Below, in pieces: positions 32,294 to 56,594 of a stretch of 64,000 nucleotides of DNA. The notes under the pieces are model-generated. The model ran no database searches. It was not told where the DNA came from and saw only the letters and a program-made list of their open reading frames with translations. The DNA lies in NCBI GenBank assembly GCA_963750165.1, contig CAVVPN010000003.1, forward strand, positions 1,952,001-2,016,000, written 5' to 3'. The stretch is from an uncultured Gemmataceae bacterium. GTDB taxonomy: Bacteria; Planctomycetota; Planctomycetia; Gemmatales; Gemmataceae. Position numbers and translations under genes: made by a program. Every line of letters starts with the position of its first letter. Position 1 is the stretch's first letter.

Positions 32294-32295
32294 GC

Positions 32296-32404: not shown

Positions 32405-32420
32405 TTGCTCTCCCACTCGG

Positions 32421-38024: not shown

Positions 38025-38117
38025 GGCATTTCCCTCCCTCGCCGTGACGACATTTTCGCCAAGCTCTCCCTCAGCGTGCCGAACGGCTTGTTTTGTTTCT
38101 CGACGCCTTCGTCCGCA

Positions 38118-38294
38118 CTACGTCAGGCAGATCCAAAGGAGCATTGCGGTGCCAATCAACATCACCCCCACCACCACATACCAGGCGGGGTGAAGGGAGC
38201 CGAGGCGCCTCCCCGGTTCGGAGAGCGCGTGCTCCTCTTTCTTGTGCTCGCGCTTTTGTCGATGGGAGAGATCATGTTCGCGGTGGTGGTCCAT
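38118..38294 (-). CDS. small His-rich single-TM protein
   Basis: AGGAG RBS; MDHHREH...HPAWYVVVGVMLIGTAMLLW. Confidence 0.6.
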   Translation of the reverse strand: MDHHREHDLSHRQKREHKKEEHALSEPGRRLGSLHPAWYVVVGVMLIGTAMLLWICLT

Positions 38295-38398
38295 GTCGTC
38301 TCCTGATTGCTGGCGTTCCTGGGAAACCGCCGTTGCCCGTAACGGGGGGAAGACGGGCCGGTACTCGTTGCGGCCGAGCCGCCTGGCCTGCCTGGCGA

Positions 38399-38842
38399 TC
38401 AGCGCAGCGCTTTGAGCAGGTCTTGCAACTGGTCGAAGGCGCGGGCGATATCTCGCAGCGCCTGCTTCTTGTTCCCCTCGAAATCGCTCCTGGCCGTTTC
38501 CAGCTCGCGCCTGGCCTCCCGCAGATCCTCCAGCGCTGCCCGGATGTTGGGATTGTCCTTCCACTTCTTGTAGAAGTCCTTGTCGCGCCGGATCGGGGAC
38601 GGGTCATCGACCCCGACGGCGAGGATCAGCCGGACGGACCGTACGGCATCGTCGATGGCGGAGAGGGATTTCTCTTTCCTGCCGCCGAGGTCGTCCTTGA
38701 GGCCGCTCACCACCTTACGGGCCTGCCGCAGTTCGTACAGCGCGGCGTGCATTTTCGGGTGCTGGATCTTTTTCTGCGCCTGCGAGGGCGCGGCCATCAC
38801 GGCCAGGGCGAGGACGGGAAGAACAAGGAGCTTGCGGAACAT
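38399..38842 (-). CDS. exported helical protein with two internal repeats
   Basis: Signal peptide; HPKMHAALYELRQAR / NPNIRAALEDLREAR repeats. Confidence 0.7.
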   Translation of the reverse strand: MFRKLLVLPVLALAVMAAPSQAQKKIQHPKMHAALYELRQARKVVSGLKDDLGGRKEKSLSAIDDAVRSVRLILAVGVDDPSPIRRDKDFYKKWKDNPNIRAALEDLREARRELETARSDFEGNKKQALRDIARAFDQLQDLLKALR

Positions 38843-38999
38843 CGAGGACTCCCGACGAATGACGGGCGTGGCCTCACGGCCGCGCTTTCTGTACTATTTG
38901 ACTGACGCAATAGGCTTAATTGTCCGGCCAGTCCTGGCCGAGTGGGCTCGCTGGCTGGCTGTGATCGCGGCGGGCAGTACCACGGTTGCGGCAGGCTTC

Positions 39000-40397
39000 T
39001 CATCCGGCCCCCTCCTTGGGCCTGGGGTTATGCCAGAAACCGTCTGCCGCGATCAGGTCGTCCGCCTCTTTCGGCCCCCAACTGCCTTTCGGATAGGGGC
39101 GGGTCAAGTGGTGGGTCTTCAGGACTGGCTCGACCACCGCCCAGGCGGCCTCAACCGCGTCCTCACGAGTGAAGAGCGCTCCGTCGCCGGCCATGGCATC
39201 GCCCAGGAGTCGCTCGTAGGGTGATTCCTCGCCGTGTTGTTCTTCGACCAGGTAGAGTTCTCGCTGGTCGCCAACGAACTCCTTCCCTGCGCGCTTGACG
39301 CGAGCGGCAAGGGCGACGGCGGAACTGGGAGCGAGCCGGAATCGCAGATAGTTGGCCAGCCCGGTCGCCGGCGCTGAGTCGGCGAAAAGCTTCTGTGGCG
39401 GAGGCTTCAACTCCACCAAGACCTCGTGCGCTGTTTCGGCCAGGCATTTGCCGGAGCGCAGATACCAGGGCACTCCCTCCCATCGCCACGAGTCGATGAA
39501 GAGCCGCAGGGCGCAGAACGTCTCGACGTCGGAGTCCTTCGCCACGTTTGGTTCCTTCCGGTAGTCGGTATACTGGCCGCGCACCACGTCATCGGGCATT
39601 AGCGGGCGCATGGCCTGGAAGATCCTGGCTTTCTCCCCATGCACGGCTCCAAAACCCCTATAGGCCGGCGGCTCCATGGCCAGCAGTGCGACGACCTGGA
39701 AGAGGTGGTTCTCGATCACGTCACGCAGACAGCCGGCGGTTTCGTAAAACGCGCCGCGGTTCTCCACGCCGAAGTTCTCGGACAGGGTTATCTGCACGCA
39801 GGCCACGTAGTTGCGGTTCCAGATCGGCTCCAGGAACGAGTTGGCGAAACGGAAATAGAGGATGTTCATGATCGCTTCCTTCCCGAGGAAGTGATCGATG
39901 CGGAAGATCGAGTCTTCCGGGAACACCGACCGCGCGACGCGGTTGAGTTCACGCGCCGAGGCCAGGTCGCGGCCGAAAGGCTTTTCGACGATGACTCTCG
40001 CATGGTCGGCCAAGTCCGCGGCGCCGAGCCCGGTGATCACCGTCGCGAAGAGCGCGGGCGGAATGGCGAGATAGTGTGCCGGGCGTCGAGCGCGCCCCAG
40101 TGTCTCTTTGATCTTCGTGAACGTGCCCTGGTCCTTATAATCCCCGCTCACATAGCTGAGCAGGGACAGAAGCTGGTCGAAGGCACGTCGGTCATCGATG
40201 CCGGCCGATCGCGTTATGCTGTCCTGTACGCGGTCGCGCAACTGCGCAAGGCTCCACTTCGGTGAGGCGACGCCGATGACCGGGACCTTCAGCGCGTCCC
40301 GTTTCACCATTGCATAGAGAGCCGGGAAGATCATCTTGTGGGCGAGATCGCCCGTCGCACCGAAGAGCACCAGAGCGTCCGAATGGGAGGCGGTCAT
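39000..40397 (-). CDS. zwf: glucose-6-phosphate 1-dehydrogenase
   Basis: [22 protein letters not shown] and RWEGVP motifs. Confidence 0.95.
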
Positions 40398-40699
40398 CGG
40401 GCATCTCCTTTTGGGGCAGCAGCCTTTTCCTCGTGGCCTTTCAAGGTAAACCCTCCGTGGTCCGCGGCGATGCCCACGCGCATCATGGGATGAAACTCGC
40501 CTTCCCGCAGCGGGGCCCCGGGGTCGAACCCTGCCATCGCCTGCTCGACGGTGGGACTGTACTCGGGCTGGCACGTCCATTCGCGTAAGAGCGGGTGCCA
40601 GTACCAGTGCTCGCCTGCGTTCCCTGTCAGCATCCAGACGAACCCCTGTTCTGACTGAACGAGGTTGTACGGGCCGCTCTGCCTGACCTGCGTCTCCAT
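40394..40699 (-). pseudogene. chimeric remnant: RpiB N-terminus joined to probable Gnd C-terminus
   Basis: [15 protein letters not shown] followed directly by [14 protein letters not shown], with ATGA overlap into zwf. Confidence 0.7.
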
Positions 40700-40726
40700 G
40701 TGACTTCTCCTGCTCCTGGAAGACGA

Positions 40727-42175
40727 TCAACGACGAGCCAGGGCATGCTCGTGATGGGCTTCGTTTCCTCTGTCGATACACAGCTCATCCAGACCGGGCT
40801 CCGCGGCACCGTGCGCGTCCAGCCAGCCACCTGAAAATCCTGCCCGACACAGCCCGCGAACAAGGTAAGGACATTGCCGCATGAGACGCCACAGCAAGCC
40901 CGAACGGTAGTTCTCGATCATCAGAACGATAGGCCCCTGATTGAGGCCCAGGTGCCAGGGGGACACCCAGCCCGGCGCATCCGCGGACTCGCTCGGGAAG
41001 GTCGGATTGAAGGTGGCCTTGTAGCCGTACGTGTTGGCCACCCGCAGGTTCAGGTTGTCAAAATACTGGAGGGTCGGCAGCACGATCTCCGGCGCAAAGG
41101 GGAGCGAGGCGACAACGCCCCAGGGCGCTATGGTGCCGTCGTCGGGGCCGTCGGGTACGCCACGCGCCAGGTAGCCGAAGAAGTGCCTCTCTCTGCCTTT
41201 GATGTTCCGGGTCACCCAGCCGGGGCCATCGCAGGCTGTGATTCCCCAGCAGTTTTCACCATACGCGCTGAATTGGCCCGGATTGCGGATGGCGTATTGC
41301 TGCTGCACGTAAGTCGCCCGGCGGCTGTTTTCAAAGTAATCGATGCCCTTGCCGCGCATGTACCCGTCCTGAATCCTCCGAAAGTCAACCCACAAGTGGG
41401 AAACCTGATGGGTAAAGAGCGGGCCGGAATGCAACAACTCGTGGTCGTAGACCTTCTTCCACTGGTAGGACGCGGTCCAGGCGGCGTAGCTTTCCTCGGG
41501 TAGCGGGTGAGTCGGCGAACCCAGGCCGAGCAAGTAGAGGAACAGCGCCTCGTCATAGCCCTGCCACCGGTACGGCAGAAAGCCGCTCTCCGGCTTCCAA
41601 CCGTGCGTGATGGTCGCCCCGCCGTCCTGGGCCCACTGCCAGTCGGCGCGCCGGTACAGTTCGTCGGCCAGTGTGCGGATTTCGCGCTCGTCCGCCGATT
41701 CGTTGGCGAAATAGGCAGCCGCGAGCAGCATGCCCGCGAGCAGAAAGGCCGAATCGACGGTGGACAATTCGCAGTTCCAAACACGCCTTCCGGTCTTCAT
41801 GTCGAGAAAGTGATAATAAAAGCCCTTGTAGCCCGTTGCCTCCGCTCCCTTGCCCTGCGAACTATTCCGGAAAAACCGCAAGGTCGTGAGCGTTCGTTCA
41901 ACGGCCTCCGCGCGGGTGATGAAACCGCGCTCCACACCAACCGGGTAGGCCGACAGGGCCAACCCGATTGCAGCGATGCTGGCGGGCGTGCCCTCCTGGG
42001 TTTTGTCCACAACCAGCCCGTTGAGAGGATTGACCTCGTAAACGAAATAGTCGAAGGTTTGGCGCTGGAGTGCGTCCAGCGGCTCCGAAGGTAGCCTGCG
42101 CTGGTTCATGTACAGGGGCCTCTCGGTTTGGGCCGCATCGAATCCCTGATCCACTGTTGCAATTCCTGTGCCCAT
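40727..42175 (-). CDS. GH144 / glucoamylase-like family protein (putative beta-1,2-glucanase)
   Basis: [28 protein letters not shown] and GLNQGP motifs. Confidence 0.8.
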
Positions 42176-42213
42176 CTCGATCTCCCGTTTCAGAGTGGCA
42201 CAGCTGGGCTTGC

Positions 42214-42780
42214 TCAGGGCAATGGGACGAAGACGCTGCCGGTGCCGCTATCACCTGCCAGTTCGTACGTCCGGTGCCGGGTGTGATGGTGTTCCGGTTG
42301 TTCCGCGACGCGGCGCAAGATGGCGACGGCTTCGTCGTAGCGGTCGCCGGCCTGGACTGTCACCAGGGAGTGGCCCGAGTGAAACTGCTGCTCGCAGTGA
42401 CGAGCCTCTGCCTCCGGAACGTTCAGGCCGATCAAGGCGCCGAGGATCCCTCCGCTCGCCCCACCCGTCACCGCCCCACCCAGGGCCCAGGCCAGCAGTC
42501 CGCCCACGATCACTGGGCCTGCTACCGGGAGGACGACCGCGGCCACCCCCAGTCCCAGGGCAGCACCGAGAACCCCACCGACGGTGGCCCCAACGGCCGC
42601 GTCCTTCCCCGCCTCTGTGCCCGACTCCACCGGAGGAGCCTCCTTCGTTGCCGGATCTTCCGCAATGAACCCGATCTGGTCGGACGCGAATCCGCTACTC
42701 CGCAACTCCTCGATGGCCTGCTCGGCGTGCGAGAAGTCCGTGAAGACGCCCACCGCCGTGTCTCGATCCGTTGTAGCCAT
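42214..42780 (-). CDS. general stress protein (YflT/17M-like, glycine zipper)
   Basis: AVGVF..AEQAIEEL..GF..DQI, Gly-zipper TM region, GLNVPEAEA. Confidence 0.8.
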   Translation of the reverse strand: MATTDRDTAVGVFTDFSHAEQAIEELRSSGFASDQIGFIAEDPATKEAPPVESGTEAGKDAAVGATVGGVLGAALGLGVAAVVLPVAGPVIVGGLLAWALGGAVTGGASGGILGALIGLNVPEAEARHCEQQFHSGHSLVTVQAGDRYDEAVAILRRVAEQPEHHHTRHRTYELAGDSGTGSVFVPLP

Positions 42781-42866
42781 AGATCACCGCCCTTTCTTTC
42801 GTGAGCAAGCTGTGCGGTCGTTGGTATCCCCACAGGGGGAGGCGTCCGGCTGCGAGAACGTGGAAC

Positions 42867-43130
42867 TTACGGGTTTTCCTCCGGCTGAGCTGCCTCTTCG
42901 GAACGGTTTCGATGTTGACGGAGGATCTCTTCGGCGCGGGCCAGGTCCGCGGCCGCGACCCAGACCTCGGCCGAGAAGCCCGGAATGTCGCCGATACCGG
43001 CGTCCAGGTAATCGCCGAGCACCTGACAGCTAATGCCCTCTTGCTCGAGCGCTTGCTGCCAGACGTGGGCCTGAAAGGGTGTCGCGGCCGCGGCAAGGCG
43101 AACAACGTCGTGCTGATCTTTTGGGTTCAT
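42867..43130 (-). CDS. DUF2007 putative signal-transducing protein
   Basis: QAHVWQQALEQEGI..V.G...EVWV...D..RA pattern. Confidence 0.75.
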   Translation of the reverse strand: MNPKDQHDVVRLAAAATPFQAHVWQQALEQEGISCQVLGDYLDAGIGDIPGFSAEVWVAAADLARAEEILRQHRNRSEEAAQPEENP

Positions 43131-43152
43131 GACATCTCCTCGTTCACGCCGA

Positions 43153-43908
43153 TCAAGCCTGTCCAGGAACATCGGGTTTGGTCGCGATTAACCGCTGGAT
43201 CCTGGAAAGTTTGCCGAGTACAAACAAGACATTCGCCAGGGTCTGTTCCTGTCCCTGGCCACCCATCGTTTGCATGATCAGATCGCCTGACCCGAGGCCG
43301 ATGACCCAGTGACGAAAGAGGTCGTCTTGCCGTTTCTGAAAGACCATGTTATCGGTGTCATAACTCTTATCCACGATACCCCCAAAGTATTCATGCGTGA
43401 CCTGCCCCGGCCGAAATCTCCAGAAGCTCATATGGTCAATGACAAAAACGCTGACGAGCCAGGTCACACAAAGCACTGTGGAAGAGAAGAGGTAAAAGCC
43501 AAGGCTCAGGCAAATCGATTGGTTGCCGAGCCAGCTCAGTATTGTTCCCCACCAATCCAGGTGGACGAACAAGAGGGTGAAGAAAGCCAGGCCGGCGAGG
43601 ATTAGTGCCGCTTTCATGCCGCGAACGCGGGCACTCGTAACCACGATCAGCAAGAGGAAAAGCAAGGTGTAAATCACCCCCAGGTCTTTGCTGGGATTGA
43701 ACAACTCCGGCTTGCCGCCGATAATCACCTGTTCAGAGTGCAGCCAGCTCAGCAAAGCCATGACGTACCCCACCACCCAGAGCGGCCACCAGTAGAACAA
43801 CGCGGAATGGCCGTAGACGATCACCTGGAGGACTTTCGCGGGCTGGTCGACTTCCGCCCGATCGGGATGGCTCGAATGGCCGGGTGCCTGCTGTATGTGA
43901 GTGGACAT
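43153..43908 (-). CDS. multi-TM hypothetical protein
   Basis: YGHSALFYWWP...DDLFRHWVIGLGSGDL; AGGAG RBS. Confidence 0.75.
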   Translation of the reverse strand: MSTHIQQAPGHSSHPDRAEVDQPAKVLQVIVYGHSALFYWWPLWVVGYVMALLSWLHSEQVIIGGKPELFNPSKDLGVIYTLLFLLLIVVTSARVRGMKAALILAGLAFFTLLFVHLDWWGTILSWLGNQSICLSLGFYLFSSTVLCVTWLVSVFVIDHMSFWRFRPGQVTHEYFGGIVDKSYDTDNMVFQKRQDDLFRHWVIGLGSGDLIMQTMGGQGQEQTLANVLFVLGKLSRIQRLIATKPDVPGQA

Positions 43909-43938
43909 CGTAAAGATCTCCTGAACATTGGATATGTA

Positions 43939-44003
43939 CCCGTAGGACGGATTTGCAATCTGTCCGCACTGAACTCGGACGGATTGCAAATCCGTCCTAC
44001 GGG
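43939..44003. repeat. inverted pair of GTAG-type REP sequences (REPIN-like)
   Basis: CCCGTAGGACGGATTTGCAATCTGTCCG-9 nt-CGGACGGATTGCAAATCCGTCCTACGGG. Confidence 0.85.
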
Positions 44004-44053
44004 GAAACCAGCTTCTGCAGCCCGCCTTTCCTGGGTATCTCCCTGGCTTCCCG

Positions 44054-44590
44054 TTACACGCCGACGGCGGCCTGTTCGGCATGAACCGTGGTCGTCTTCG
44101 CTCGCGTCTGACGCAGCAGGTCCCTAGCCCGTTCCACCTCGTCGGCCGTTCCGTGGGCGACCAGGAGGAGTTTGCCGTTCTTGACCTCGGTCTCGTATTG
44201 CAGGACACTGTTCTTCGGAATGCCGATACTGGCCAGCGCGGCGCCGAGGGCGCTGACCCCGCCCACGACGGCGGCGCCTTCGAGGGCGCCGACGAACCAG
44301 GCCACCATGGGTCCCGCCACGAGCAGCGGACCAATGCCCGGCACCCAGAAGAACGCGGAGCCGAACAGCAGCCCCCAGAAGCCGCCCCAGAACGCCCCCA
44401 CCTTGCCCCAGTACAGCATGCGATCGCCGGTAGTGTAGTAGCCCACGACGTGTTCTTCCGTGTGGTAATCCTTGCCGACGATCGACAGCCTTTTCATGTC
44501 GAAGCCGTCCCTCTGAAGTTCGCGGATGGCTTCTTCAGCCCGGTCGTGCGATTCAAAGACGGCGACGACGGAGTTCGTGTTGGACATCAT
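44054..44590 (-). CDS. DUF1269-like general stress membrane protein (copy 1)
   Basis: KRLSIVGKDYHTEEHVVGYY...WGGFWGLLFGSAFF. Confidence 0.85.
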   Translation of the reverse strand: MMSNTNSVVAVFESHDRAEEAIRELQRDGFDMKRLSIVGKDYHTEEHVVGYYTTGDRMLYWGKVGAFWGGFWGLLFGSAFFWVPGIGPLLVAGPMVAWFVGALEGAAVVGGVSALGAALASIGIPKNSVLQYETEVKNGKLLLVAHGTADEVERARDLLRQTRAKTTTVHAEQAAVGV

Positions 44591-44634
44591 CTGATTCCTT
44601 GCCTTTCGTTGCAGAGCGATATGGTTCCTCAAGC

Positions 44635-45138
44635 TCAGCGCTCGTCCCAGCCGGCGAGAACGCGTTCGATCTCCTCCTTGTGCCGCGTCTCATCCGCGAC
44701 CTGGTTTTCCAGGCTCACCTTCAGGCCGACGTCCCCGATGGCATCCGCCTGACGCAGCCGCTGGTCGTAGTCCGCGATCGCTTGTTTCTCGGCGGCGAGC
44801 GCGTGCTCCAGCATTTCCCTCGGCTGCTCGGCGGGGGGGACCGGGCGCGGTTGGGTCGTCGGTTCGCCTCCGAGGGCGGCGATCTTGTCCGCCAGGAACT
44901 GAGCATGTCCCTGCTCATCGACAATCTCGGCCTGGAAGAGGGCGCGCAGTTCCCTGCGGTACGGCCCCGTCAGCTTGGCCGAGTATTGGATGTACATCAC
45001 GATGGCCTGGTATTCGCCGGCCAGGTCGTGGTTGAGGCCCTCGATAAGGGCCTTGCGATCCGCTCCTGGCGGGGTCGGCTTGTTATTCCCCGCGACGCGG
45101 GTGTTCGGCTCGCCTTTTGTCGGTGTTCCTACAGACAT
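44635..45138 (-). CDS. ferritin-like (bacterioferritin-type) protein
   Basis: LNHDLAGEYQAI, DEQGHA, EKQAI and DETRH di-iron ligands; GAGGAGG RBS. Confidence 0.88.
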   Translation of the reverse strand: MSVGTPTKGEPNTRVAGNNKPTPPGADRKALIEGLNHDLAGEYQAIVMYIQYSAKLTGPYRRELRALFQAEIVDEQGHAQFLADKIAALGGEPTTQPRPVPPAEQPREMLEHALAAEKQAIADYDQRLRQADAIGDVGLKVSLENQVADETRHKEEIERVLAGWDER

Positions 45139-45219: not shown

Positions 45220-45254
45220 TCACCGTTGCACGATCTCCTCACCCATCGCGAACG

Positions 45255-45305
45255 AAAAAAAAGCCGGCGTGGACGAACACCCTTGGTATTCGTCCACGCC
45301 GGCTT
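45255..45305 (-). terminator. intrinsic terminator of leader copy 1
   Basis: 17 bp perfect stem, 11 nt loop and T8 tract on the - strand. Confidence 0.9.
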
Positions 45306-45417
45306 ACTCGTCTAATGGGCCCCCCTGGCATGGCAGGGTTGCCCTTTAGTTAGTCTTCCGACGACTTCATAATGAAGTCTGTAGCGGAGCCGGTTGAAAG
45401 TTCACCAAGGCCCCGCA
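45255..45417 (-). ncRNA. candidate cis-regulatory leader RNA/riboswitch (copy 1)
   Basis: Lies between a promoter and a terminator; several stems; near-identical second copy at 62467-62630. Confidence 0.65.
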
Positions 45418-45423
45418 GTTTTT

Positions 45424-45451
45424 AATATACGCCTCTGACCAGGGAATGCAA
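45424..45451 (-). promoter_or_regulatory. sigma70-type promoter of leader copy 1
   Basis: TTGCAT-N16-TATATT; homology with copy 2 ends at the -35 box. Confidence 0.7.
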
Positions 45452-45506
45452 GGGGCAGCCGGGATCGCTACGCCGACAGCGTGCCGCCGGGCCGCAGCAG
45501 GGGTGC

Positions 45507-45888
45507 CTACTCCGGGTCATAGACGCGGTAGGCGAGCAGTTTCACCTGGTCGTTCACCAGGAATCAGGCCCGGGCATACCCCCACACCAGCAGCGTCCAC
45601 TTCCAGCCTATTGGCGTCATCAGGTCCAGCACCCGATACACCGCGATCAGGGTCGCCAGAACCTGCGTGCCGACCCCCGCCACAAACAGGATGGGCGCCG
45701 GTGGAATCGACCAGAACGGGCCGCGAGTGTGCGTGACGAAGATGGTAATGCGCCCGGCGACCGACAGTTTCAAGTACATGAAGGTCAGGAGTGTCTCCCG
45801 GTCGAGGTGCAAAACGCGCTCCCCCAGGTAGAAGAGGCCAAACAAAACGAACACACCAGTGATGCCGAGGACGGTCGCCAGCCCTAGT
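45507..45888 (-). pseudogene. C-terminal remnant of a second Pma1-type H+-ATPase
   Basis: [25 protein letters not shown]...WGYARA*FLVNDQVKLLAY matches 18302-21029; internal stop and no 5' part. Confidence 0.88.
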
Positions 45889-45889
45889 C

Positions 45890-46597
45890 TCAGCCGCCGC
45901 TGGCTTCCTTGACCGCCAGGACGACCTCGACCGGGACCCAGATGCTACGGTGCTCTTGGTTGACGACTCGGAACCCCGCCGCTTCGAGTGCCCGGGCGAT
46001 GAAGATGGGCCGGCAGTCCACGAAGTTGGGGAAGTGCTTGTGCGTCCACTCGTAAAGGTGGAAGATCATGCCGTGCCCCTGCTCCTTCGACATGCCGACG
46101 ACCGCGATAGGGCCGCCCGGCCGGAGCACGCGCTTGCACTCCGCCAGGACGAGCGGGATCTCCGGGGTGTCGAACAGTTCCAGGGTAAAGCTCATGAAGA
46201 TCGCGTCGAGCGTCCCGGCGGGGTAGGGCAGGTGCAGAGCGTCGCCACACGTCAACTCGGCCCGGCCGCTCAGCCCGGCCTTTTGCAGGTTCTCGTCGGC
46301 GTGCTGGCGCATGGCGTCGGAGAGGTCGATGCCGTACACCTTGCCGGCCGGTCCGACCGCCTGGCCCAGGGCCACCAGGCAGTGGCCGGTGCCGAAGCCG
46401 ATCTCCAGCACCTTCTGGCCTGGCCGGACCGCGAGCAGATCGAGCCCGGCCTGGCGGGCCGGCGCCTCGCTGTGGTCGGCCATCAGGTCATAAATCCGCG
46501 CGATGCGGTCGTAATACTTCCTCGTCTCTTCCCGCGAGTTGAAGACGCGCAAGACGGCCGGCTCGACCGGGTCTTGGATCGATGCTTCTGTTGACAT
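45890..46597 (-). CDS. class I SAM-dependent methyltransferase (UbiE-like)
   Basis: VLEIGFGTG, GIDLS, GDALHLP and RVLRPGG motifs. Confidence 0.88.
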   Translation of the reverse strand: MSTEASIQDPVEPAVLRVFNSREETRKYYDRIARIYDLMADHSEAPARQAGLDLLAVRPGQKVLEIGFGTGHCLVALGQAVGPAGKVYGIDLSDAMRQHADENLQKAGLSGRAELTCGDALHLPYPAGTLDAIFMSFTLELFDTPEIPLVLAECKRVLRPGGPIAVVGMSKEQGHGMIFHLYEWTHKHFPNFVDCRPIFIARALEAAGFRVVNQEHRSIWVPVEVVLAVKEASGG

Positions 46598-46646
46598 GGA
46601 CTTGCCCTCGAAACACGCATTCCGGGCGAACACCCGAGTTGTTAGC

Positions 46647-48869
46647 TCACCGCTTCTGCGACGGGCGAGACAGTTTTTGCAGTTGCCTCTCCAGTTCGTC
46701 CCATTTGTGCTCCAGCTGCTGAAAGCGTTGATCGAAGTCGCTCGCGGGTGGCGAGGCCACCCTGGGTTCCGGCGGGCCGAACGCGCGTATGTAAGCAATC
46801 AGGTCACGAGCCTGGTCTGTGCTAAGCCGACCGCGGAAGGATGGCATGAATACCCCCTTGCCATCCAGGATGCTGGCCAGCAACTGCGGATCAGCCTGCC
46901 TTTCCTGCCAGGCGCGCTCGGTGAAATCGGGGATGGGGGGCATGCTGGGCCGCATCGCCGTGCCTCGCCCGTCGGGACCGTGGCAAGTTATGCAGTACTG
47001 CCGGAAAAGCCCCGTCGCCACGCGCAGTCTCGCTTCGACCTCGGCCGATGGTGTCGCCGGGCCCGATCGCGGGGTACGAATCTTCGGGCCCGGAATGACC
47101 GCCGGGTGTGCCGGCCCTGGCGGGATCGGATGGTGTTGTGGCTCCAGGGTAACCACATGCTTCCCCCCACGGAACGCCCTCACGTATGCGACCATTTGCT
47201 GCGCCTCGGTCTCGGGGACCTTGTCTTTCATGGGCAGCATGAACTTCCCTTTTCCATCCAGGATTGAGTGGCGGAGTTCGGCATCCGTGCGGGACTCCTG
47301 CCATTTGGCCCTGGTAAAATCCGGGATTTCGGCCATCGCCTTACGCACCGTTTCACCACGCCCGTCCGCGTCATGGCACGCCAGGCAGTAAGCGCGGTAG
47401 ATTTGGACCGGGGTCATTTGGGACGCGGCCGGAGCGGGCGGTGGTTGTTTCGGCTTCGGACCGATCGGCGCACTTGGGTGGACCGCAAATGCCCGGACGT
47501 ACACCGCCAGGCCGAGAATCTCTTGCCTGGAAAGCTTGTCCCGATACGCAGGCATCAACGGCTCTTTCCCGGAGAGGATTTGGTGAGTGATCTCGAGATC
47601 GGTCTGCGACATTTGCCAGGCAAGGCTGGTAAAGTTCGGAATGGTCGGCATTCCTTTGCGAACCTGGTTTGCCGTGCCATCCACCCCGTGGCATGCGGCA
47701 CAGTTGGTATTGAAAACCCTGGCAATGTCCAGCTTCTGAACCGGTCCGGCCGGTTCAGCGGGCAAAGTCTTGGCGGCAGCGGAGGCCGGCTCCTCCATCC
47801 GCACGTCGGTAGTAATGGCGAAAATCGTCAGGCCCACCAATCCAACCGTTCCGAAGCCCAGAAGGGTCATGGCCAGCGGCCGGCGGCGCGGGTCACAGTG
47901 CGGATTGCGGTCCATGAGTGGCCAGAAAAACAGTAGCAAAAAGAAGACGGCAGGCAGCACGAAGGTGCCCACAATTTCGTAGGGTCCTTCAAAATACCGC
48001 AGGAGCCGGAAAAGGAACATGAAGTACCACTCTGGACGTGCCTCGTAGGGCTGGGCGGGGTCGGCCCTGGCCGCCAGGGGAGCTGGCCGATAGTAGCACC
48101 ACACTCCCAGCCCGACCAGAAGGACAAGAGCGAGCACGCCATCTTTCCACGCCTGGCACGGCCAGAATGGCTCAGCCTCCGCTTCGAGTTGGCCGTGGGA
48201 TTCCCACCAAGGAGGAGTAACACCGTGCAGGCGGAACAGATAGAGATGCACCACCACGAGCAGAATTAGGAGGCCAGGGAGTATAAAGGCATGCAGACTG
48301 AAAAACCGAGTCAGAGTCAGGTTGCCCATCTCGGGCCCGCCTTGCAGGAACGTGTGCAGGCCATCCCCGATGACCGGCACCGTGCTGACTATGTCCAGCC
48401 CCACCTTCGACGCCCAGTACGCCTTCTGATCCCAGGGCAACAGGTAACCCGTAAAGGCAAGTCCGAGGGTGCAGAAGAGCAACACCACGCCAACCATCCA
48501 GGTAAGCTCGCGGGGGCGCTTGCAGGCGCCCCAGACGAACACCTGCACCATGTGAAACAGCAACAGGATCACCATGGCGCTGGCACCCCAGTGGTGCAGA
48601 GCCCGGATAAACCAGCCGAAGGGTACATCTTCCTGGATGAACTTCACACTCGGGTAAGCAGTTTCCACCGACGGAGCATAGTTCATCGTCATCAGAATGC
48701 CCGTGATCACTTGGAGCGCGATCGTGAACAAGAGGAGGCTGCCGAAAGCTGCGGCCCAGCGCGAGCCTCCCGGAAGGGGTTCAAGGAGCAGTGCGCGTTT
48801 CAGCCAACTCCATGAGGTTCGCGATTCCCAGAATCCAGGTGCTTTCTGCTGGACAGGTCCTGTACTCAT
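46647..48869 (-). CDS. cytochrome b fused to three cytochrome c domains
   Basis: HHWGA..H, GYLLPWDQ, H..H and PEWY motifs, then CAACH, CLACH and CITCH. Confidence 0.92.
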   Translation of the reverse strand: MSTGPVQQKAPGFWESRTSWSWLKRALLLEPLPGGSRWAAAFGSLLLFTIALQVITGILMTMNYAPSVETAYPSVKFIQEDVPFGWFIRALHHWGASAMVILLLFHMVQVFVWGACKRPRELTWMVGVVLLFCTLGLAFTGYLLPWDQKAYWASKVGLDIVSTVPVIGDGLHTFLQGGPEMGNLTLTRFFSLHAFILPGLLILLVVVHLYLFRLHGVTPPWWESHGQLEAEAEPFWPCQAWKDGVLALVLLVGLGVWCYYRPAPLAARADPAQPYEARPEWYFMFLFRLLRYFEGPYEIVGTFVLPAVFFLLLFFWPLMDRNPHCDPRRRPLAMTLLGFGTVGLVGLTIFAITTDVRMEEPASAAAKTLPAEPAGPVQKLDIARVFNTNCAACHGVDGTANQVRKGMPTIPNFTSLAWQMSQTDLEITHQILSGKEPLMPAYRDKLSRQEILGLAVYVRAFAVHPSAPIGPKPKQPPPAPAASQMTPVQIYRAYCLACHDADGRGETVRKAMAEIPDFTRAKWQESRTDAELRHSILDGKGKFMLPMKDKVPETEAQQMVAYVRAFRGGKHVVTLEPQHHPIPPGPAHPAVIPGPKIRTPRSGPATPSAEVEARLRVATGLFRQYCITCHGPDGRGTAMRPSMPPIPDFTERAWQERQADPQLLASILDGKGVFMPSFRGRLSTDQARDLIAYIRAFGPPEPRVASPPASDFDQRFQQLEHKWDELERQLQKLSRPSQKR

Positions 48870-48890
48870 AGCTTCCCCCTCTCGCAAGCA

Positions 48891-49427
48891 TCAAACCTCA
48901 ACGGGGATACGCCGGGCCACGCCGATCTTGAAGTCTTCCCATTTGACCCACAATTGACCATCGTGAATCTCGTAAGGCAGCGGGTCCATCGAGCGGGGCG
49001 GCGGCCCGGCGATATGCTGTCCCTTGGCGTCAAAGGTACCCCCGTGACAGGGGCAAATAAACTCTTTCACGTCGGGGTGCCAGTTGACCGGGCATCCCAG
49101 GTGAGGACATATCGGTGACAGCACGGTCAACTCTGCATCGGAATTGCCGTCCCTCCGTACCCAGACCGCGTGTCGTTGGCGGGCTTTTTCCCAGCCGTCC
49201 TCGCGAACCACTTCCAGCGACAGGAGCCGCCATTCACCGACCGAGAGGTCGTTGATGGGCCCTAATTCCACGTAAGCTGTCCCCCCGCTGCCGCCGCGCC
49301 GCTTTCTCAAGAAGGGGGCACTCATGTAGCCGAAGACCGGAATTGCCAGCAGCAGGCCGATAACTGCCAACAGTGCATCTGTGCATAGACGCAGGAAACG
49401 CCTGCGATTCGTTGTCGAGTCTGCCAT
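48891..49427 (-). CDS. Rieske 2Fe-2S subunit of a bc-type complex
   Basis: NRRRFL Tat motif with TM anchor; CPHLGC and CPCHG. Confidence 0.93.
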   Translation of the reverse strand: MADSTTNRRRFLRLCTDALLAVIGLLLAIPVFGYMSAPFLRKRRGGSGGTAYVELGPINDLSVGEWRLLSLEVVREDGWEKARQRHAVWVRRDGNSDAELTVLSPICPHLGCPVNWHPDVKEFICPCHGGTFDAKGQHIAGPPPRSMDPLPYEIHDGQLWVKWEDFKIGVARRIPVEV

Positions 49428-49492
49428 GAAGTTGTACCCTCCGATTGCCGAGAGCTGTTTTGCCTGGAGCGGCGGAGCCTGGCCGAGTGGGC

Positions 49493-49816
49493 TCACTGCC
49501 AGACCACCGGCGGAATTTGGGCCAGCGCTGGGGCAATCTGGTCCGCTGCCGTAAGCCGCTCGGCAGGAAAGCTGGTGGTCAAGGCCAGGCAACGGCAACC
49601 GGCCGCCTTTGCCGCCTCCACCCCGGCGACAGTATCCTCGACGACCAGGCAGTCGGCCGGGGGGAGCCCCGGCCGCTGTGCCGCCGTCGGGAACAGGTCG
49701 GGATGCGGCTTTTTACGGTGGACGTCACACTTGATGCCTTCACCTTCAAGGACATTCTTGAGGATCTCCGCTTCGGCGGGGTTGGTGGTTGTCTGAATCT
49801 CCACAGGCTCGTTCAT
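49493..49816 (-). pseudogene. chimera of DUF2007 N-terminus and HAD phosphatase C-terminus
   Basis: NPAEAEILKNVLEGEGIKC-DV-HRKKPHPDLF...CLVVEDTVAGVEAAKAAG. Confidence 0.7.
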
Positions 49817-50007
49817 GTCCACGAATCAGTCTCCTTTTCGGGATGGATCGTATTCGCCACGTTCCCGAGCGCGACTGGCGACCTCGCCTTTTCGCTGCAA
49901 CACGTTCTCTCCAGAATCCTTGCGGCGCAGAGAAAAAGCGAGGTCGCCAGTTCGCCATGTGCCGGGTGACTCTGCCGGGCTCTGATTGACCATGCGACAA
50001 AGTCATC

Positions 50008-51228
50008 TTAGTGATGCAGAAGCGCATCTTCGTGCATGCTCTCGCTGGCGTGGTCCTCGTGCTGCGGGGGACCATCGTCTGGACCTTCGAGATCGACCTT
50101 CAGGTTCAAGAAACGAAGCAAGTCCTTGAGGCAGACGATCCCCACCAGCCGCCCACCTTCGTTGACGAGCAGGCGGCTGGAGCTGGTCTGCTGCATCTTG
50201 CTCAAGGCCTCCATCGCGTCGGCGTCTGGGGCGATGGTGACGGCCCCGAGGTCAGACGACATCACCTCGCCGACGGAGCGGTGGGCCCACTCGTCGCGGG
50301 GAATTTGCAGGATGGCCTGAGTCGTGACAACGCCCTCCAGCCGTCCGTTTGCAACCACGGGGAACGCGCGGTGGTGGTAGCGATAGACGTAGCCCTCGAC
50401 CCATTGAAGCAGGTCCAGCGACGGTGAGACGACAATCGGGTCGGGGTTCATGAACCGGCGCACCGGCTCGCCCTCGAGAGCCTGCCGGATCAGCACCTGC
50501 TGGTAGCCACTCTTGGCCGCTCCGTTCAGGAACATCCCGATCAGGACGCTCCAGATTCCGCCCACCCAGTTGTGGGAGAAAAACTGGATCACGCCCCAGC
50601 CGATCAGCACCCAGGCGAAGACCTGGCCGGCGTTGGAGGCCCAGCGCGTCGCCCGCCGCACGTTGCCGGTTGCGCCCCAGAGGATCGAGCGCAGCACGCG
50701 GCCCCCGTCGAGCGGGAAGGCGGGAACCATGTTGAAGACGAGCACCACCGCGTTGATGGTGGCCAGGTAGCCGAGGACGATCACGACAGGATGCGGCCAG
50801 TTGCCGTGGTAACCAACCTCGGCCACGACCCAGAAAACAACGGCCAGGACGGCACTGACGAGGGGACCCGCGATGGCCATGAGGAACTCAGTCCCGGCGG
50901 ACTTGGGCTCTTCACCAAGCTCGGAAACCCCGCCGAACAGAAAGAGAGTGATGCCGCTGATAGGCATCCCGCGGGACCGGGCCACGAGGGCATGTCCGAA
51001 CTCGTGCAAGACGATGCAGGTGAAGAAGGCCAGTGCCGTTATCAGGCCCATGATCCAGTAATCGGCCTGCGCCAGTTGCTGCGTGTCCCCGGGGAAGTAT
51101 TCGTGCAGGATGACCGGGAAGCCCTCGGCAAAGCTCAGCGTGAGCAGGGCGAGGATCAGCAACCAGCTCACGTCCACGCTGACCGGAATTCCCAGAAGGC
51201 GAAACAACCGCCAACGCATGCCAAACAT
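50008..51228 (-). CDS. site-2 protease (M50) with CBS pair
   Basis: HEFGH and FNMVPAFPLDGGR motifs; two CBS domains. Confidence 0.93.
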   Translation of the reverse strand: MFGMRWRLFRLLGIPVSVDVSWLLILALLTLSFAEGFPVILHEYFPGDTQQLAQADYWIMGLITALAFFTCIVLHEFGHALVARSRGMPISGITLFLFGGVSELGEEPKSAGTEFLMAIAGPLVSAVLAVVFWVVAEVGYHGNWPHPVVIVLGYLATINAVVLVFNMVPAFPLDGGRVLRSILWGATGNVRRATRWASNAGQVFAWVLIGWGVIQFFSHNWVGGIWSVLIGMFLNGAAKSGYQQVLIRQALEGEPVRRFMNPDPIVVSPSLDLLQWVEGYVYRYHHRAFPVVANGRLEGVVTTQAILQIPRDEWAHRSVGEVMSSDLGAVTIAPDADAMEALSKMQQTSSSRLLVNEGGRLVGIVCLKDLLRFLNLKVDLEGPDDGPPQHEDHASESMHEDALLHH

Positions 51229-51398
51229 AAGTTCCCTCCAATCACCCAAGCTCAGCAGTGGCGGCCTGCTGCGCCGAAACTTGCGAGAGCCAATGAAGCG
51301 GCCCCCGTCTGCTTTATCGATTGGTTCAGCGAGGCAGACTTGGATGCACCGAGGTCAGAGTACCGAGCCCGGTGGCCCGTCTTTGATTTTCCCAATCC

Positions 51399-51617
51399 TC
51401 AGGGAGCTTTGTCCACCGGCCGCCGCGATTTAGGCGGCGGGTAAACGGCCCTGGCGATCGTGGCTGAGAGCCACCCGAGCACCCATCCAAGGAAGAGCAA
51501 GAGGAAGGTGTGCGCAGTGTCTTTGCTGGCTACGGACGCAACACCCGCCAGGATGATAGCCCATACAACTGCACAGCCGATGCTGTATGCCGCGTAGGTA
51601 TTGAACGACAGTTTCAT
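51399..51617 (-). CDS. small two-TM protein (paralog of 23052-23309)
   Basis: AAGGAGG RBS; near-identical core sequence. Confidence 0.75.
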   Translation of the reverse strand: MKLSFNTYAAYSIGCAVVWAIILAGVASVASKDTAHTFLLLFLGWVLGWLSATIARAVYPPPKSRRPVDKAP

Positions 51618-51725
51618 TCCATCATCCTCCTTCACCAAGCCGCCGAAGATGTGATCTGATCCGGCCTCAGCCTCTCCTGCCGTCACAGGTGATGGCGATC
51701 TCGTAGGCCAGCATCGGCAGAATGG

Positions 51726-52307
51726 TTAGCTCCGTTTCGGGCCAGGAGACGTCTTGCCTCCAAACCACCGGCCCAGGCGAGACGACAAGCTGAAGAACGG
51801 AGCCGCCGCCTTCGCATCAATTGCCTTGAGGCTGCGAGCAGCTTGCTTGCGAACGGCTCCGTGCTCGTCGCTCAGCAATTCGCTCAGTGCCGAGAACGCC
51901 GCATTTGCGTCCGGACCGAAGCAGCCCAGGGCTTCGGCGGCATTCCGGCGCACGTCTTCTTCTTTATCCTTCAGCGCGTTCGCGAGAGCAGGGACGACGG
52001 CGTTCGCATCCCGCGCGATTTGTCCGAGGGCCGTGGCCGCGTTACCGCGGAGGTATTTATCCTCATCCCGGAGGGCAGCAATCAGGGCCGATGTCGCGGT
52101 CGCCGCTGCCGGCCCGATGGTCCCCAGCGCGACGACCGCTTGATTGCGGACTTGCCATTCCGACGTCTTCAGCAGCTCCATCACGCTTGGGACCGCGGCC
52201 ACGCCGATGCGAGCCAACGCCTGGATCGCTCGCTGTCGCGCTGTTCTGTCCTCGTTCGCCAGCTCCTTCATCCAGTATTCCTTTTTCCCCAGATCCTCAG
52301 CGGACAT
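51726..52307 (-). CDS. HEAT repeat protein
   Basis: Repeated L.D....VR..A..ALG.IG units. Confidence 0.88.
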   Translation of the reverse strand: MSAEDLGKKEYWMKELANEDRTARQRAIQALARIGVAAVPSVMELLKTSEWQVRNQAVVALGTIGPAAATATSALIAALRDEDKYLRGNAATALGQIARDANAVVPALANALKDKEEDVRRNAAEALGCFGPDANAAFSALSELLSDEHGAVRKQAARSLKAIDAKAAAPFFSLSSRLGRWFGGKTSPGPKRS

Positions 52308-52421
52308 GATGAGGTCCTCCCTTCTCAGTGGTTGCTTTTCTTTAGCCGGAAGTCACATGCTTGCTTTCTGCATTGGGCAGCGGAGTTACTCGCTCGGCGG
52401 CCCCCTTGGTCCGGGCCACGT

Positions 52422-52550
52422 TCAGGTGGATGTACTGTCCGGGAACGCAGTTTTCACGACGAGCACCGGACAGGTCGCCTTGCGCAACACCTGTTCGGCG
52501 ACGCTGCTCATCAGCAAGCGCGACAACCTGGTGCGGCCGTGAGGGCCCAT
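52422..52550 (-). pseudogene. universal stress protein C-terminal remnant
   Basis: MGPHGRTRLSRLLMSSVAEQVLRKATCPVLVVK, a degenerate MGxHGR..LLxGSV..V....CPVL motif. Confidence 0.8.
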
Positions 52551-52558
52551 TCCTCGGT

Positions 52559-53335
52559 TCACGAAGATGGCGGCAGCGATGTCTTCTCCGTCCCAGGAGC
52601 TTGCAGGCGATGAAGCGTCTCGACAATCAACTCGGCAACCTGGGTGACAGACAGACGCATGGCGTTAAGGACGAGATCGTAATGCGAGGGATCGAGCGTG
52701 TCCTTGAAAAAATGGTCCCAGACGAAGTCTTTGCGCTCGCGGTCGATGGTCCGCACCTGCTGGGCTGCTTCACGTTCGGTAATGCCGCGCTGGCGGGCCA
52801 GCGCCGCGATGCGTTCGCGCGCTGAACCCACGAGGCGAACGCGCAAGGTCGTTGCGGCGGGCAGGATGAAGGCGGCGGCGCGACCAACGATCACGCATTC
52901 ACCGTGGACGCCGAGAGCGTGTACGGTCTCGATCAGCTCGTGAACGTAGGCGGCTTCGCTCGCCCAGGGGGACACACCGCCCGTCACGAGAGAAGCCAGG
53001 GAAGCCTCGATGGATTCGCGCAGCCAGCTCTGCTGGCGCTTATCCACGCTCTCCAGCAAGGCCGTCCGCAGGCCCATCGCCTGGGCGATCTGCTCGAGAA
53101 GTTCGTGATCGTAAACGTGCCAGCCCAACAGTCTGCCCACCTCTTTGGCGACCAAAGTGCCCTGCGTCCCCGCTTCGCGCGACAGGGTAATGGTGAAGGC
53201 ATGAGACGTCCGCGGCTGGACGTTCTGCTGCGCAGTGGTAGCCTGGCGCCGCGCCTCCCAGTGCCGGTAAGCCTTTTCGACCGGTTGCGACGAAGTGCTG
53301 TCGTGTGACAGTGCGGACGATCGGTCGTGGTTCAT
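52559..53335 (-). CDS. cytidylate kinase-like family protein
   Basis: ITLSREAGTQG, CVIVGRAA and YDLVLN motifs. Confidence 0.85.
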   Translation of the reverse strand: MNHDRSSALSHDSTSSQPVEKAYRHWEARRQATTAQQNVQPRTSHAFTITLSREAGTQGTLVAKEVGRLLGWHVYDHELLEQIAQAMGLRTALLESVDKRQQSWLRESIEASLASLVTGGVSPWASEAAYVHELIETVHALGVHGECVIVGRAAAFILPAATTLRVRLVGSARERIAALARQRGITEREAAQQVRTIDRERKDFVWDHFFKDTLDPSHYDLVLNAMRLSVTQVAELIVETLHRLQAPGTEKTSLPPSS

Positions 53336-53365
53336 GTCAACCTCCTGAGTCTTGCCGTTTCGTCG

Positions 53366-53668
53366 TTACCACCCGAACGTCACGCTTTGCAGTCCCAGAT
53401 AGGCGATGACCAGGTCCAGAGCGAGGGCGGCGACAGATACGAGCATCGCGACGATGGAGAGCCGGTAGTCCAGGGACCGCCGGCGCGCCATCGTGCAATC
53501 AACGAAACCGAGCACCAGCCCGGTAAGACCCCAAACGATTCCCAGGGGAACCCACCAATAGAACACCCCTCCAAGGACCCCAAAAACGAGCGAAGCGACA
53601 CTCAGACCGCGGAGGTTCTGTGTGGTTTTTTCGGCGGTCACCTTGTCGTCTTTGATTTCCGTGTTCAC
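53366..53668 (-). CDS. three-TM membrane protein
   Basis: AGGAG RBS, GTGA overlap with the upstream stop, hydrophobic helices. Confidence 0.65.
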   Translation of the reverse strand: MNTEIKDDKVTAEKTTQNLRGLSVASLVFGVLGGVFYWWVPLGIVWGLTGLVLGFVDCTMARRRSLDYRLSIVAMLVSVAALALDLVIAYLGLQSVTFGW

Positions 53669-54426: not shown

Positions 54427-54458
54427 GGCAACCTCTTGGCTCATACTGTCGATCACTG

Positions 54459-54662
54459 TCAAGATCGGCTAAGTTTGGCAATCACCTTTTCGATGATTGC
54501 CTCCTGGTGAAGGACATACTTCCTGTAGTCAGCGTGATCGGTGCGGTGCTCCTCGACGAGCGTGTTTCGACGCCTTTGCTGGAGCCAGTTCAGCAATTCC
54601 GCGCGTTCCCCCTCAGTCAGGGTCAGAGTAAACTCGGTGGACAGATCATTGAGTGTTGACAT
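54459..54662 (-). CDS. small helical hypothetical protein
   Basis: GGAGG RBS; LTLTEGERAELL...VEEHRTD...YRK. Confidence 0.65.
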   Translation of the reverse strand: MSTLNDLSTEFTLTLTEGERAELLNWLQQRRRNTLVEEHRTDHADYRKYVLHQEAIIEKVIAKLSRS

Positions 54663-54741
54663 CAGTAACCTCCGACAGATGGGTACCCTAAACTGATGTC
54701 CCTCACGCAGAGAGACCTCAAGCAACACGCATGCAGAGGCA

Positions 54742-55796: not shown

Positions 55797-55862
55797 GAAA
55801 AGCCCTTTCATCCAGGGACTACTCCCTCCGGTCCCGCAGCCAGCTGGCTCTCATTTCTAGAC

Positions 55863-56381: not shown

Positions 56382-56594
56382 TCTGCATCTCCGCAGCGAT
56401 CGGTTTTTTTCACCCGTCGGACGTTGTCACTGGTTACTGAAGTGCAACTCTCGTGCCGCCTCGTGCTCTGCTCACGTCGTCTCCATATCGTTCGTCCGGA
56501 TTGGCGCAGGGCCATTTTTCAGAAGCAGCCCTTCTCGATTTCCTCGGCGACGAGTTGCTTGATGCAAGCCACACCGGCACACTCCTTGCCCGAG

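Follow-up and report, generated by a model that had tools for sequence, protein, structure and literature searches.

The stretch analysed here, referred to as the window, comprises 64,000 nucleotides of contig CAVVPN010000003.1 (forward-strand positions 1,952,001 to 2,016,000) from the 9.6-Mb genome of an uncultured Gemmataceae bacterium, and it carries on its minus strand two copies of a leader RNA element (copy 1, 45243-45469; copy 2, 62455-62686) that is uncatalogued in Rfam and is linked, in this genome and elsewhere, to genes of the MpsC protein family (YbcI, DUF2294; Pfam PF10057). A first-pass annotation of the window, made from the letters alone, had placed both copies at these sites, and the duplication is real, with 209 of 233 nt (90%) identical by BLAST. 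The promoter boxes it described, the terminator with its T8 tract (a 17-bp stem common to both copies, 21 bp in copy 1) and every stem it listed exist in the sequence; the copies differ in loops, bulges or G-U/A-U swaps, and both head long minus-strand gene blocks, with a ferritin-like gene first behind copy 1. Its placing of the end of homology at the -35 box was nearly right, as similarity reaches ~18 nt beyond the box, across a 4-nt gap. The parts of the two copies are as follows.

45424..45451, minus strand: predicted sigma70-type promoter of copy 1 (TTGCAT-N16-TATATT)
45384..45416, minus strand: accessory 5' hairpin of copy 1 (GCGGGGCC...GGCUCCGC), from the minimum-free-energy fold; not family-wide
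45363..45379, minus strand: second accessory hairpin of copy 1 (GACUUC-loop-GAAGUC), from the fold; local, in 0/139 homologues
45297..45363, minus strand: conserved antiterminator rod of copy 1 and proposed MpsC-binding site (-33.3 kcal/mol; inner-helix covariation)
45255..45305, minus strand: intrinsic terminator of copy 1 (21-bp stem, T8; -41.1 kcal/mol), its first 9 nt being the rod 3' strand
62637..62664, minus strand: predicted promoter of copy 2 (TTGCAT-N16-TACACT)
62510..62577, minus strand: antiterminator rod of copy 2, from the fold and from 101.9 bits on covariance model R1
62467..62518, minus strand: terminator of copy 2, from fold and sequence

The rod of copy 1 is formed by the strands CGUCGG / AAG / ACU and AGU / AAG / CCGGCG, which enclose an inner hairpin and flank a purine-rich 3x3 internal loop (ANG/AAG). 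The terminator of copy 1 is the top match of the terminator scan, and the inner hairpin that accompanies it in the full RNA has -21.9 kcal/mol. The 9 nt that open the terminator serve at the same time as the 3' strand of the rod base, so that an RNA can form either the antiterminator or the terminator but not both, and each of the two folds is conserved. BLAST and profile searches found eight copies in the host genome, all on one contig (C3) and within two islands (1.94-2.02 Mb and 0.539-0.553 Mb); a covariance model recovers exactly these eight at 99-107 bits, with everything else at 35 bits or less apart from their own antisense terminators. The third copy (G000:C3:1950238-1950359) lies 1.6 kb left of the window and heads a plus-strand block. 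Alignment of the eight limits the conserved unit to the 3' ~110 nt. There, CGG-ANG-AC...GU-AAG-CCG closes a rod hairpin, the 3' strand of which doubles as the start of the terminator; the structured element described earlier is real as a whole, but that only this part is conserved across the family had been missed.

Outside the host genome, a pattern of two anchors and the terminator end (CGGANGAC...GTAAGCCG...CGGYTTTT) matches at least 136 GTDB loci, and among the matches listed 134 of 136 record titles are Planctomycetota (Gemmatales, Pirellulales, Planctomycetales, Isosphaerales, Phycisphaerae). In the 130 nt upstream of each of 139 distinct homologues, a strong sigma70-like promoter occurs in 93, against 20 in the reversed control, with the -10 box mostly 40-70 nt before the core. 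Known families offer no strong match: Rfam 15 at gathering score yields just a tRNA in the window and just tRNAs at 14 homologous loci, copy 1 searched at E<=10 gives six matches of 18 bits or less, and the Na+-I/DUF1646 model (RF03071; cut-off 40.5), which resembles the element in being a small terminator-overlapping ON switch, as other rod-like ON riboswitches do, has three chance matches of at most 18.3 bits, none at an element.

Covariation was assessed in 145 sequences (the 133-row pattern set trimmed to 130, the eight own copies and seven from relatives), long-insert rows being left out. The strongest covarying columns are those of the inner rod and the terminator, and the scan of these sequences gave no junction or pseudoknot signal. 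Paired cells make up 91.4% in the named structure versus 80.6% after shuffling, and the covariation score is 0.394, compared with 0.189 for shuffled alignments (0/500 shuffles) and at most 0.12 with slid partners. Changes on both sides are seen in 9/9 pairs of the two innermost helices, in 14/14 inner terminator pairs and in 1/3 pairs of the weak helix below the innermost rod helices, and tandem purine pairs inside the rod covary too (A.G/G.A at columns 37/60). The rod base reads (U)CGG/CCG(R), then the 3x3 loop ANG/AAG, then AC(U)/(A)GU, and an extension of the basal helix beyond UCGG/CCGR shows no excess over chance. At the level of sequence, covariation thus supports both folds. GUC-GGAN-GAC was tried as a functional hairpin and rejected, as it shows no covariation and the 3-bp hairpin is possible in 73/140 homologues; the GUC-GGAA-GAC stem of the first-pass annotation does exist, but as a by-product of the OFF state, the CGG being paired in the nascent RNA with CCG of the terminator arm.

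Since the anchors at the rod base were set by the search pattern, the basal pairs were tested separately in other lineages. With C disallowed before GG, a scan of metagenomes gave at least 124 loci (112 distinct matches, 90 past the terminator filter). Among the matches listed, 21 of the 38 low-GC contigs have U-A as the first basal pair, 2 have U-G and 15 leave it unpaired, and 39 of the 52 high-GC contigs have U-G. MpsC-adjacent variants read GG-CAG-AU...AU-AGG-CC or GG-UCG-AU...AU-AAA-CC, with C-G replaced by U-A in the second helix in 5/8, and a model-fitted alignment of 93 matches, some antisense rows included, has C-G (36), U-A (27), U-G (6) or other combinations (24) at the first pair and C-G (68) or U-A (7) at the second. 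Neither the length nor the sequence of the inner rod is constant from lineage to lineage; both vary freely. When the 145 RNAs are cut before the 3' arm of the terminator, the basal helix forms with P>0.5 in 137, and in full-length RNA the terminator exceeds 0.9 in all 145; a nascent RNA that folds the rod and a full RNA that folds the terminator would make a switch that is OFF by default and turns ON only with help in holding the rod. Four metatranscriptome runs on a Ca. Scalindua-like locus (L262), available as contigs and not as reads, gave three contigs whose ends lie close to the 5' edge of the element and a fourth that crosses the terminator end; contigs show neither termination nor its level.

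The genes that follow the two copies in the window fall into these blocks.

44635..45138, minus strand: ferritin/Dps-like gene, first behind copy 1 (PF00210, E 1e-24)
13980..45138, minus strand: co-directional block behind copy 1 (Pfam/NCBIfam)
45564..62300, minus strand: block behind copy 2 (Pfam)

Beyond the ferritin, the copy 1 block encodes YflT (twice), glycoamylase, G6PD, PGM, GH94, phosphorylase, isoamylases, HAD, acetate kinase, phosphoketolase, aldolase, an H+-efflux P-ATPase (two frames) and PPK2, and just short, chance-level terminator-like sites occur inside it; it is a putative single transcript. The copy 2 block holds a short open reading frame (ORF), a histidine kinase (61149-61979), SPFH, YflT (twice), an epimerase, two cytidylate-kinase-like genes, HEAT, M50-CBS, Rieske, cytochrome b/c and methyltransferase genes. 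The genes for the H+-ATPase (18302-21254) and GH94 (32421-36333) are each split over two frames, by real lesions or sequencing indels. Where the next gene behind a GTDB element is not MpsC, 67 of 115 candidate downstream ORFs were scanned, of which 32 received a family and 35 none; the families are CsbD, YflT, ferritin/Dps, Hsp20, BON, DUF1328, DUF2383, TspO, PRC-barrel, glycosyltransferase, CsrA, Crp, PAS sensors, P-type ATPases and others, which we take to be a general-stress gene set. The 24 ORFs behind low-GC elements, many of them in close relatives of one another, comprise PEPCK(GTP) (four), PurK (two), PurE, carbonic anhydrase, SulP/BicA-like carriers (two), aminotransferases (three), FolC, an ATP synthase subunit and nine unnamed products (two of them DUF4914); named carriers of such CO2-type loci are Acidaminobacter, Ca. 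Scalindua and Acetoanaerobium. Thus, in Planctomycetia the element heads general-stress genes, and in Clostridia, anammox bacteria and others it follows an MpsC gene and heads CO2-linked genes (PEPCK, PurK/E, carbonic anhydrase and bicarbonate carriers, SbtA too). The two gene sets are unrelated, and MpsC alone is common to both. The earlier proposal of a new attenuator controlling ferritin, stress and storage-carbon genes is supported.

Several further features of the islands were observed. Midway through the stress island, a tyrosine integrase adjoins tRNA-Val(CAC) (window 12197-13467), with no duplicated tRNA-Val 3' end (att-site) elsewhere marking an island border, and the second island likewise has a tRNA (L033:1000-1072). 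Duplications within the window's island involve YflT, cytidylate-kinase-like genes, an ATPase C-terminal fragment just upstream of copy 1, and MpsC (pairs 44035-44632/57470-58067, 52595-53347/53686-54438, 23059-23290/51397-51628, 18516-18787/45529-45806 and 10107-10466/62884-63242), and a 42-nt repeat, 90% identical, lies between the copy 1 terminator and the ferritin gene (45178-45219) and before ORF 59199-59885 (59881-59922). Element copies reach ~15 per genome in relatives and can be closely spaced, with two back to back in L101 (1489-1729), four within 3.1 kb in G002 (L035, G002:C1035) and up to three per 3 kb in Scalindua-like loci (L217, L215, L287). The element also occurs on large phage-type contigs (L360:1501-1849, L355 and L361, viral, 112-192 kb; L357, 572 kb), and the gene immediately behind it in L360 is of the CsrA family (PF02599); a phage may be coupling its csrA to the host switch.

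The tie to MpsC is visible in the host genome, where all eight PF10057 loci lie within the two element islands, five of them 60-321 nt from an element and the others at 2.4, 8.4 and 11.8 kb. The nearest MpsC gene to copy 1 is 17.5 kb away, and the two in the window are these.

62901..63241, plus strand: MpsC/DUF2294 gene, clade A, divergent from copy 2 and 321 nt from it (PF10057 in two pieces), split by a frameshift near 63080 that is either real or a sequencing indel
10124..10504, plus strand: intact MpsC/DUF2294 gene, clade A, last gene of the plus-strand block behind the third copy (PF10057, E 8.5e-37)

Among the matches listed, GTDB loci found by the RNA pattern alone carry MpsC on the same ~3-kb locus in 43 of the 84 elements with flanks, as the first downstream gene in 21 and divergently in 27, and low-GC metagenome loci found by RNA alone have it directly upstream on the same strand in 23 of 36. 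Of 61 relatives (27 MpsC-positive, 34 MpsC-negative), 21 have a match to the RNA model at E<=0.01. Scores above 50 bits, a threshold chosen after the gap in scores was seen, occur in 16; 15 of these 16 are MpsC-positive, and the element is present in 1 of the 34 MpsC-negative genomes (Fisher p 3e-6, inflated by kinship). Weak matches of 24-35 bits come from four MpsC-free relatives, and the one inspected is without the inner rod. Across 201 genomes of the phylum, the strict pattern occurs in three, all among the 18 MpsC-positive ones, and in 0/183 others; of the other 15 MpsC-positive genomes, seven have a clear variant beside the gene, two a partial one and two another leader. The strict generalised pattern is found in 0/994 background windows. 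In Acetoanaerobium noterae, MpsC is encoded by just one gene, and 6 nt past the stop codon of that gene the motif begins; in Anoxybacillus an element variant lies between DUF2294 and a bicarbonate permease, and a second long hairpin overlapping a terminator was seen by eye upstream of the DUF2294 gene (L208:7826-7977). The candidate dedicated regulator gene is thus linked to and co-distributed with the RNA, the exceptions being one relative (G034) and phage contigs.

MpsC sequences fall into clades that the RNA subtype tracks (by eye). Clade A is conserved, carries GRGP and is divergent from the element, clade B is fast-evolving and is the first regulated gene, and most of the 12 MpsC-positive relatives without a full element have a third clade, C, which precedes carbonic anhydrase, SulP, SbtA, DabB-like or isocitrate dehydrogenase genes. 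The leader of clade C often has two short GCCC-N2-3-GGGAU units ahead of a GGCCGG terminator (L188:5251-5316, L190, L192, L194, L195, L196, L203 and L204) and is probably a sister RNA family. Receiver-MpsC fusions (REC-MpsC) occur in the host genome (G000), G055, P0037 and P0108; that of the host lies behind a CheB-CheR-PAS-GAF hybrid kinase, 2.4 kb from another copy (L031:9314-14728; G000:C3 2023.3-2028.7 kb), and that of G055 behind an HWE kinase (L205:5007-6687), so MpsC stands where an output domain would. Clade-B-like domains were also seen fused to PEPCK(GTP) (L352:469-2898) and to three BON domains (L353:1940-3148).

The protein linked to the element matches just PF10057 in Pfam, plus receiver domains in the fusions. 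It keeps GRGP, with the basic residues R25, R42, K68, R71 and R79 invariant or nearly so, and its model (pLDDT 92) has a predicted alpha-beta-beta-alpha-alpha-beta-beta order. Foldseek with this model gave no match at E<=0.001 and an ESM Atlas search just MpsC clusters; in structure comparison the best Z was 6.5, and RbfA (KH type II; Z 6.1, root-mean-square deviation 3.5, 86 aligned) tied with unrelated folds. A structure prediction for a clade A-clade B heterodimer (score 0.01, mark 0.32) is evidence neither way. The same family, MpsC/YbcI/DUF2294, is represented in the Staphylococcus aureus mpsABC and Bacillus subtilis ndhF-ybcCFHI loci and linked there to inorganic-carbon uptake; mpsA mRNA drops 1.7-2.5-fold in 5% CO2 (PMC6689103), and MpsC is said not to be a functional part of MpsAB. 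The ndhF-ybcCFHI genes are described as an independently modulated, poorly characterised set (bioRxiv 2020.04.26.062638).

Our preferred reading, to which we assign a probability of about 0.6, is that MpsC is an RNA-binding antiterminator, similar in kind to HutP or the ANTAR proteins. RNA polymerase would make the ~60-nt rod, and the base of this rod (CGG-ANG-AC / GU-AAG-CCG) takes in the bases with which the terminator 5' arm begins; without help the terminator would invade the rod and win, stopping transcription, whereas active MpsC/DUF2294 would bind the purine-rich 3x3 loop and its flanking pairs and hold the rod, letting the polymerase read on. A single protein family would thereby drive a regulon of leaders, eight in the host genome, heading general-stress and storage-carbon operons. 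The input in Planctomycetia may come through the REC-MpsC fusions beside hybrid or HWE sensor kinases, with phosphorylation as the signal, and stand-alone MpsC would probably respond to CO2/bicarbonate or a linked C3/C4 metabolite in those lineages in which a single MpsC gene immediately precedes the leader of PEPCK, purK/purE, carbonic anhydrase or bicarbonate-carrier genes. An antiterminator role for MpsC would explain the co-distribution, the regulator-first layout, the receiver fusions and the use of one RNA for two unrelated gene sets.

A number of observations weigh against this role. The basal invariants of alignment A2 were preset by the search pattern and hence are no independent evidence, and related genomes are not independent of one another. 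Among the matches listed, 41 of 84 GTDB elements have no MpsC on the locus, G034 (94% complete) has the element and no MpsC match, and on phage contigs with the element no MpsC lies within 1.5 kb. Conversely, in gene-anchored loci the strict generalised pattern matches just 7 of 41 MpsC domains (five distinct elements), no element was found in 4 of the 15 MpsC-positive phylum genomes without the strict pattern, and clade C usually comes with the different terminator-bearing leader. The mpsA leader of Staphylococcus pettenkoferi (L209:3448-3488), the one staphylococcal leader seen, has a terminator directly before the start codon and no ANG/AAG motif. In S. aureus, according to PMC6689103, delta-mpsC grows normally in air, unlike delta-mpsA/B, and mpsC is dispensable for complementation, which argues against a required activator there. 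Finally, the gene neighbourhood also fits a riboswitch with MpsC in its regulon.

In such a riboswitch, a small ligand would bind the internal loops of the rod and stabilise it against the terminator, an ON switch, while MpsC would handle the same ligand and merely lie in or next to the regulon; candidate ligands are CO2/bicarbonate, C3/C4 acids (oxaloacetate or PEP, for example) and monovalent ions. This is the alternative we take most seriously, though we consider it unlikely. It has the same two-state anatomy, and it suits the coherent CO2-linked set of the low-GC lineages (PEPCK, PurK, PurE, carbonic anhydrase, SulP/BicA-like, SbtA), the many leaders with their own promoter between MpsC and the element, the position of clade B as itself the first regulated gene (21/84, among the matches listed), the two loci in which clade B is fused to PEPCK or to BON domains, an arrangement conceivable for a ligand-binding domain, the further tandem purine pairs that covary in the rod, and the lack of a growth defect in S. 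aureus delta-mpsC (PMC6689103). Against it, just ~14 bases are conserved, all at one internal loop of a simple rod devoid of junction or pseudoknot signal, and the inner rod is free in length and sequence between lineages. It also leaves unexplained the near-absence of the element from MpsC-free genomes (1/34; 0/183), the usual position of MpsC upstream and outside control, and the REC-MpsC fusions, which the antiterminator role accommodates.

The remaining alternatives appear far less probable. That the element is no switch at all, only a promoter-terminator cassette or small RNA gene spread by duplication in islands and read through by leakage, is improbable: the copies are clustered in islands where an integrase adjoins a tRNA, number up to ~15 per genome and have the terminator as by far the stronger fold, and regulation here is predicted from sequence, but the element is spread over different classes and phyla, in which the overlap helix is preserved by compensatory changes, sits 5' of co-oriented genes from two coherent sets, has no duplicated tRNA end as island border and is strictly tied to MpsC. 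We regard it as highly improbable that another RNA-binding protein works the switch; CsrA, the obvious one, is encoded directly behind the element in the host genome (L034), L118 and a phage contig, and the rod 5' strand has an invariant GGA, yet in the ON fold this GGA is paired or in the internal loop and not in a hairpin loop as CsrA recognition would have it, the rejected GUC-GGAN-GAC hairpin has a probability of ~0 in nascent RNA, variants read GGCAG or GGUCG, and CsrA bound to GGA would favour termination. The likeness to the Mg2+-responsive M-box (ykoK) riboswitch raised by the first-pass annotation is rejected, and a shortened M-box variant seems to us scarcely credible. Both are terminator-coupled leaders, short look-alikes of what we take to be M-box motifs occur in the two window copies, and a true MgtA Mg2+-ATPase (TIGR01524 above cut-off; 5314-7950, plus strand) lies ~7 kb behind the third copy. 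However, a search of the entire genome with RF00380 found nothing at E<=10 (family cut-off 44 bits; control positive in B. subtilis), and GGUGA-N0-12-GGCUCC, CCUUGGUG and GACUU..AAGUC each occur in 0/139 homologues (CCGGCU in 7, GGCUCC in 16); a conserved GGUGAGGCUCC-type 5' core, as we take the M-box to have, was not encountered there, GGUGA alone being present in 12/139 against 9 in the control stretch. The element is smaller and simpler in fold, no Mg2+ transporter is found among the family-named downstream ORFs, and its default-OFF logic is opposite to that of the M-box, whose genes are turned off when ligand is bound. In both window copies the bases concerned fold into two local 5' hairpins. 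The look-alikes of copy 1 lie, together with the bases of CCUUGGUG and CCGGCU, in the accessory hairpin at 45384..45416 (a similar hairpin is seen by eye in some close relatives), and the absence of conservation makes the antiterminator pairings proposed earlier, CCUUGGUG with the terminator loop and upstream CCGGCU with AGCCGG, local ones; what truly competes with the terminator is the basal helix (U)CGG/CCG(R) together with AC(U)/(A)GU. The attenuator reading is upheld and extended.

Among known antitermination systems, the closest in gene layout is B. subtilis hutP-terminator-hutH, in which HutP binds NAG triplets and melts the terminator (PMC12591593). Both have a small regulator gene, then a terminator, then regulated metabolic genes, and in both a ligand-activated protein would permit read-through; here, by contrast, a separate covarying rod competes with the terminator, and Pfam and PDB sequence searches found no HutP match to MpsC. 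In the RAT of the CAT-domain antiterminators BglG, SacY and LicT, an irregular hairpin interrupted by internal loops likewise shares its 3' strand with the terminator 5' arm (PMC5393181). The RAT is default OFF and protein-held. It is ~30 nt long with other loops and serves sugar PTS genes, whereas the rod of the element is ~45-65 nt with the ANG/AAG loop and serves stress or CO2 genes; no CAT or PRD domain was found among the neighbour proteins scanned. ANTAR proteins (EutV, AmiR, NasR) share with MpsC an output domain that stands alone or is receiver-fused beside a sensor kinase, and many leaders per genome, but they bind two small hexaloop hairpins and are all-helical, whereas MpsC is predicted to be alpha-beta and the RNA is one rod. 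Pfam finds no CAT, ANTAR or HutP domain in the linked protein. By analogy, the element appears to work like RAT, HutP and ANTAR antitermination, and by RNA model and protein domain it belongs to none of them. The literature covered, which includes few subscription papers, contains no description of the element RNA or of MpsC as RNA-binding.

A wider and more tentative reading, which we hold to be possible but somewhat doubtful, is that MpsC/DUF2294 is a hitherto unrecognised family of RNA-binding antiterminators, spread across phyla, that senses inorganic carbon directly, the first CO2/bicarbonate-gated attenuation in bacteria. Planctomycetia would have multiplied it and wired it to sensor kinases through REC-MpsC, running their general stress regulon by antitermination instead of an alternative sigma factor, and some large phages would hang csrA on the host signal via the leader.

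For MpsC/YbcI/DUF2294, which is conserved, is encoded next to the bicarbonate pump in staphylococci and bacilli and has no function assigned in the literature covered, the results suggest a role that experiments can test, and with an RNA of 60 nt and a protein of 120 residues the test is cheap. If it were true that the RNA binds a ligand itself, a new riboswitch class, of equal interest, would result. The antiterminator role offers a mechanism by which heterotrophic and anammox bacteria may adjust their carboxylation genes (PEPCK, purK/purE, carbonic anhydrase, bicarbonate carriers) to the CO2 available, and it suggests that Planctomycetia have a general stress regulon run at the RNA level, whose gene content is that of SigB- or EcfG-type regulons elsewhere.

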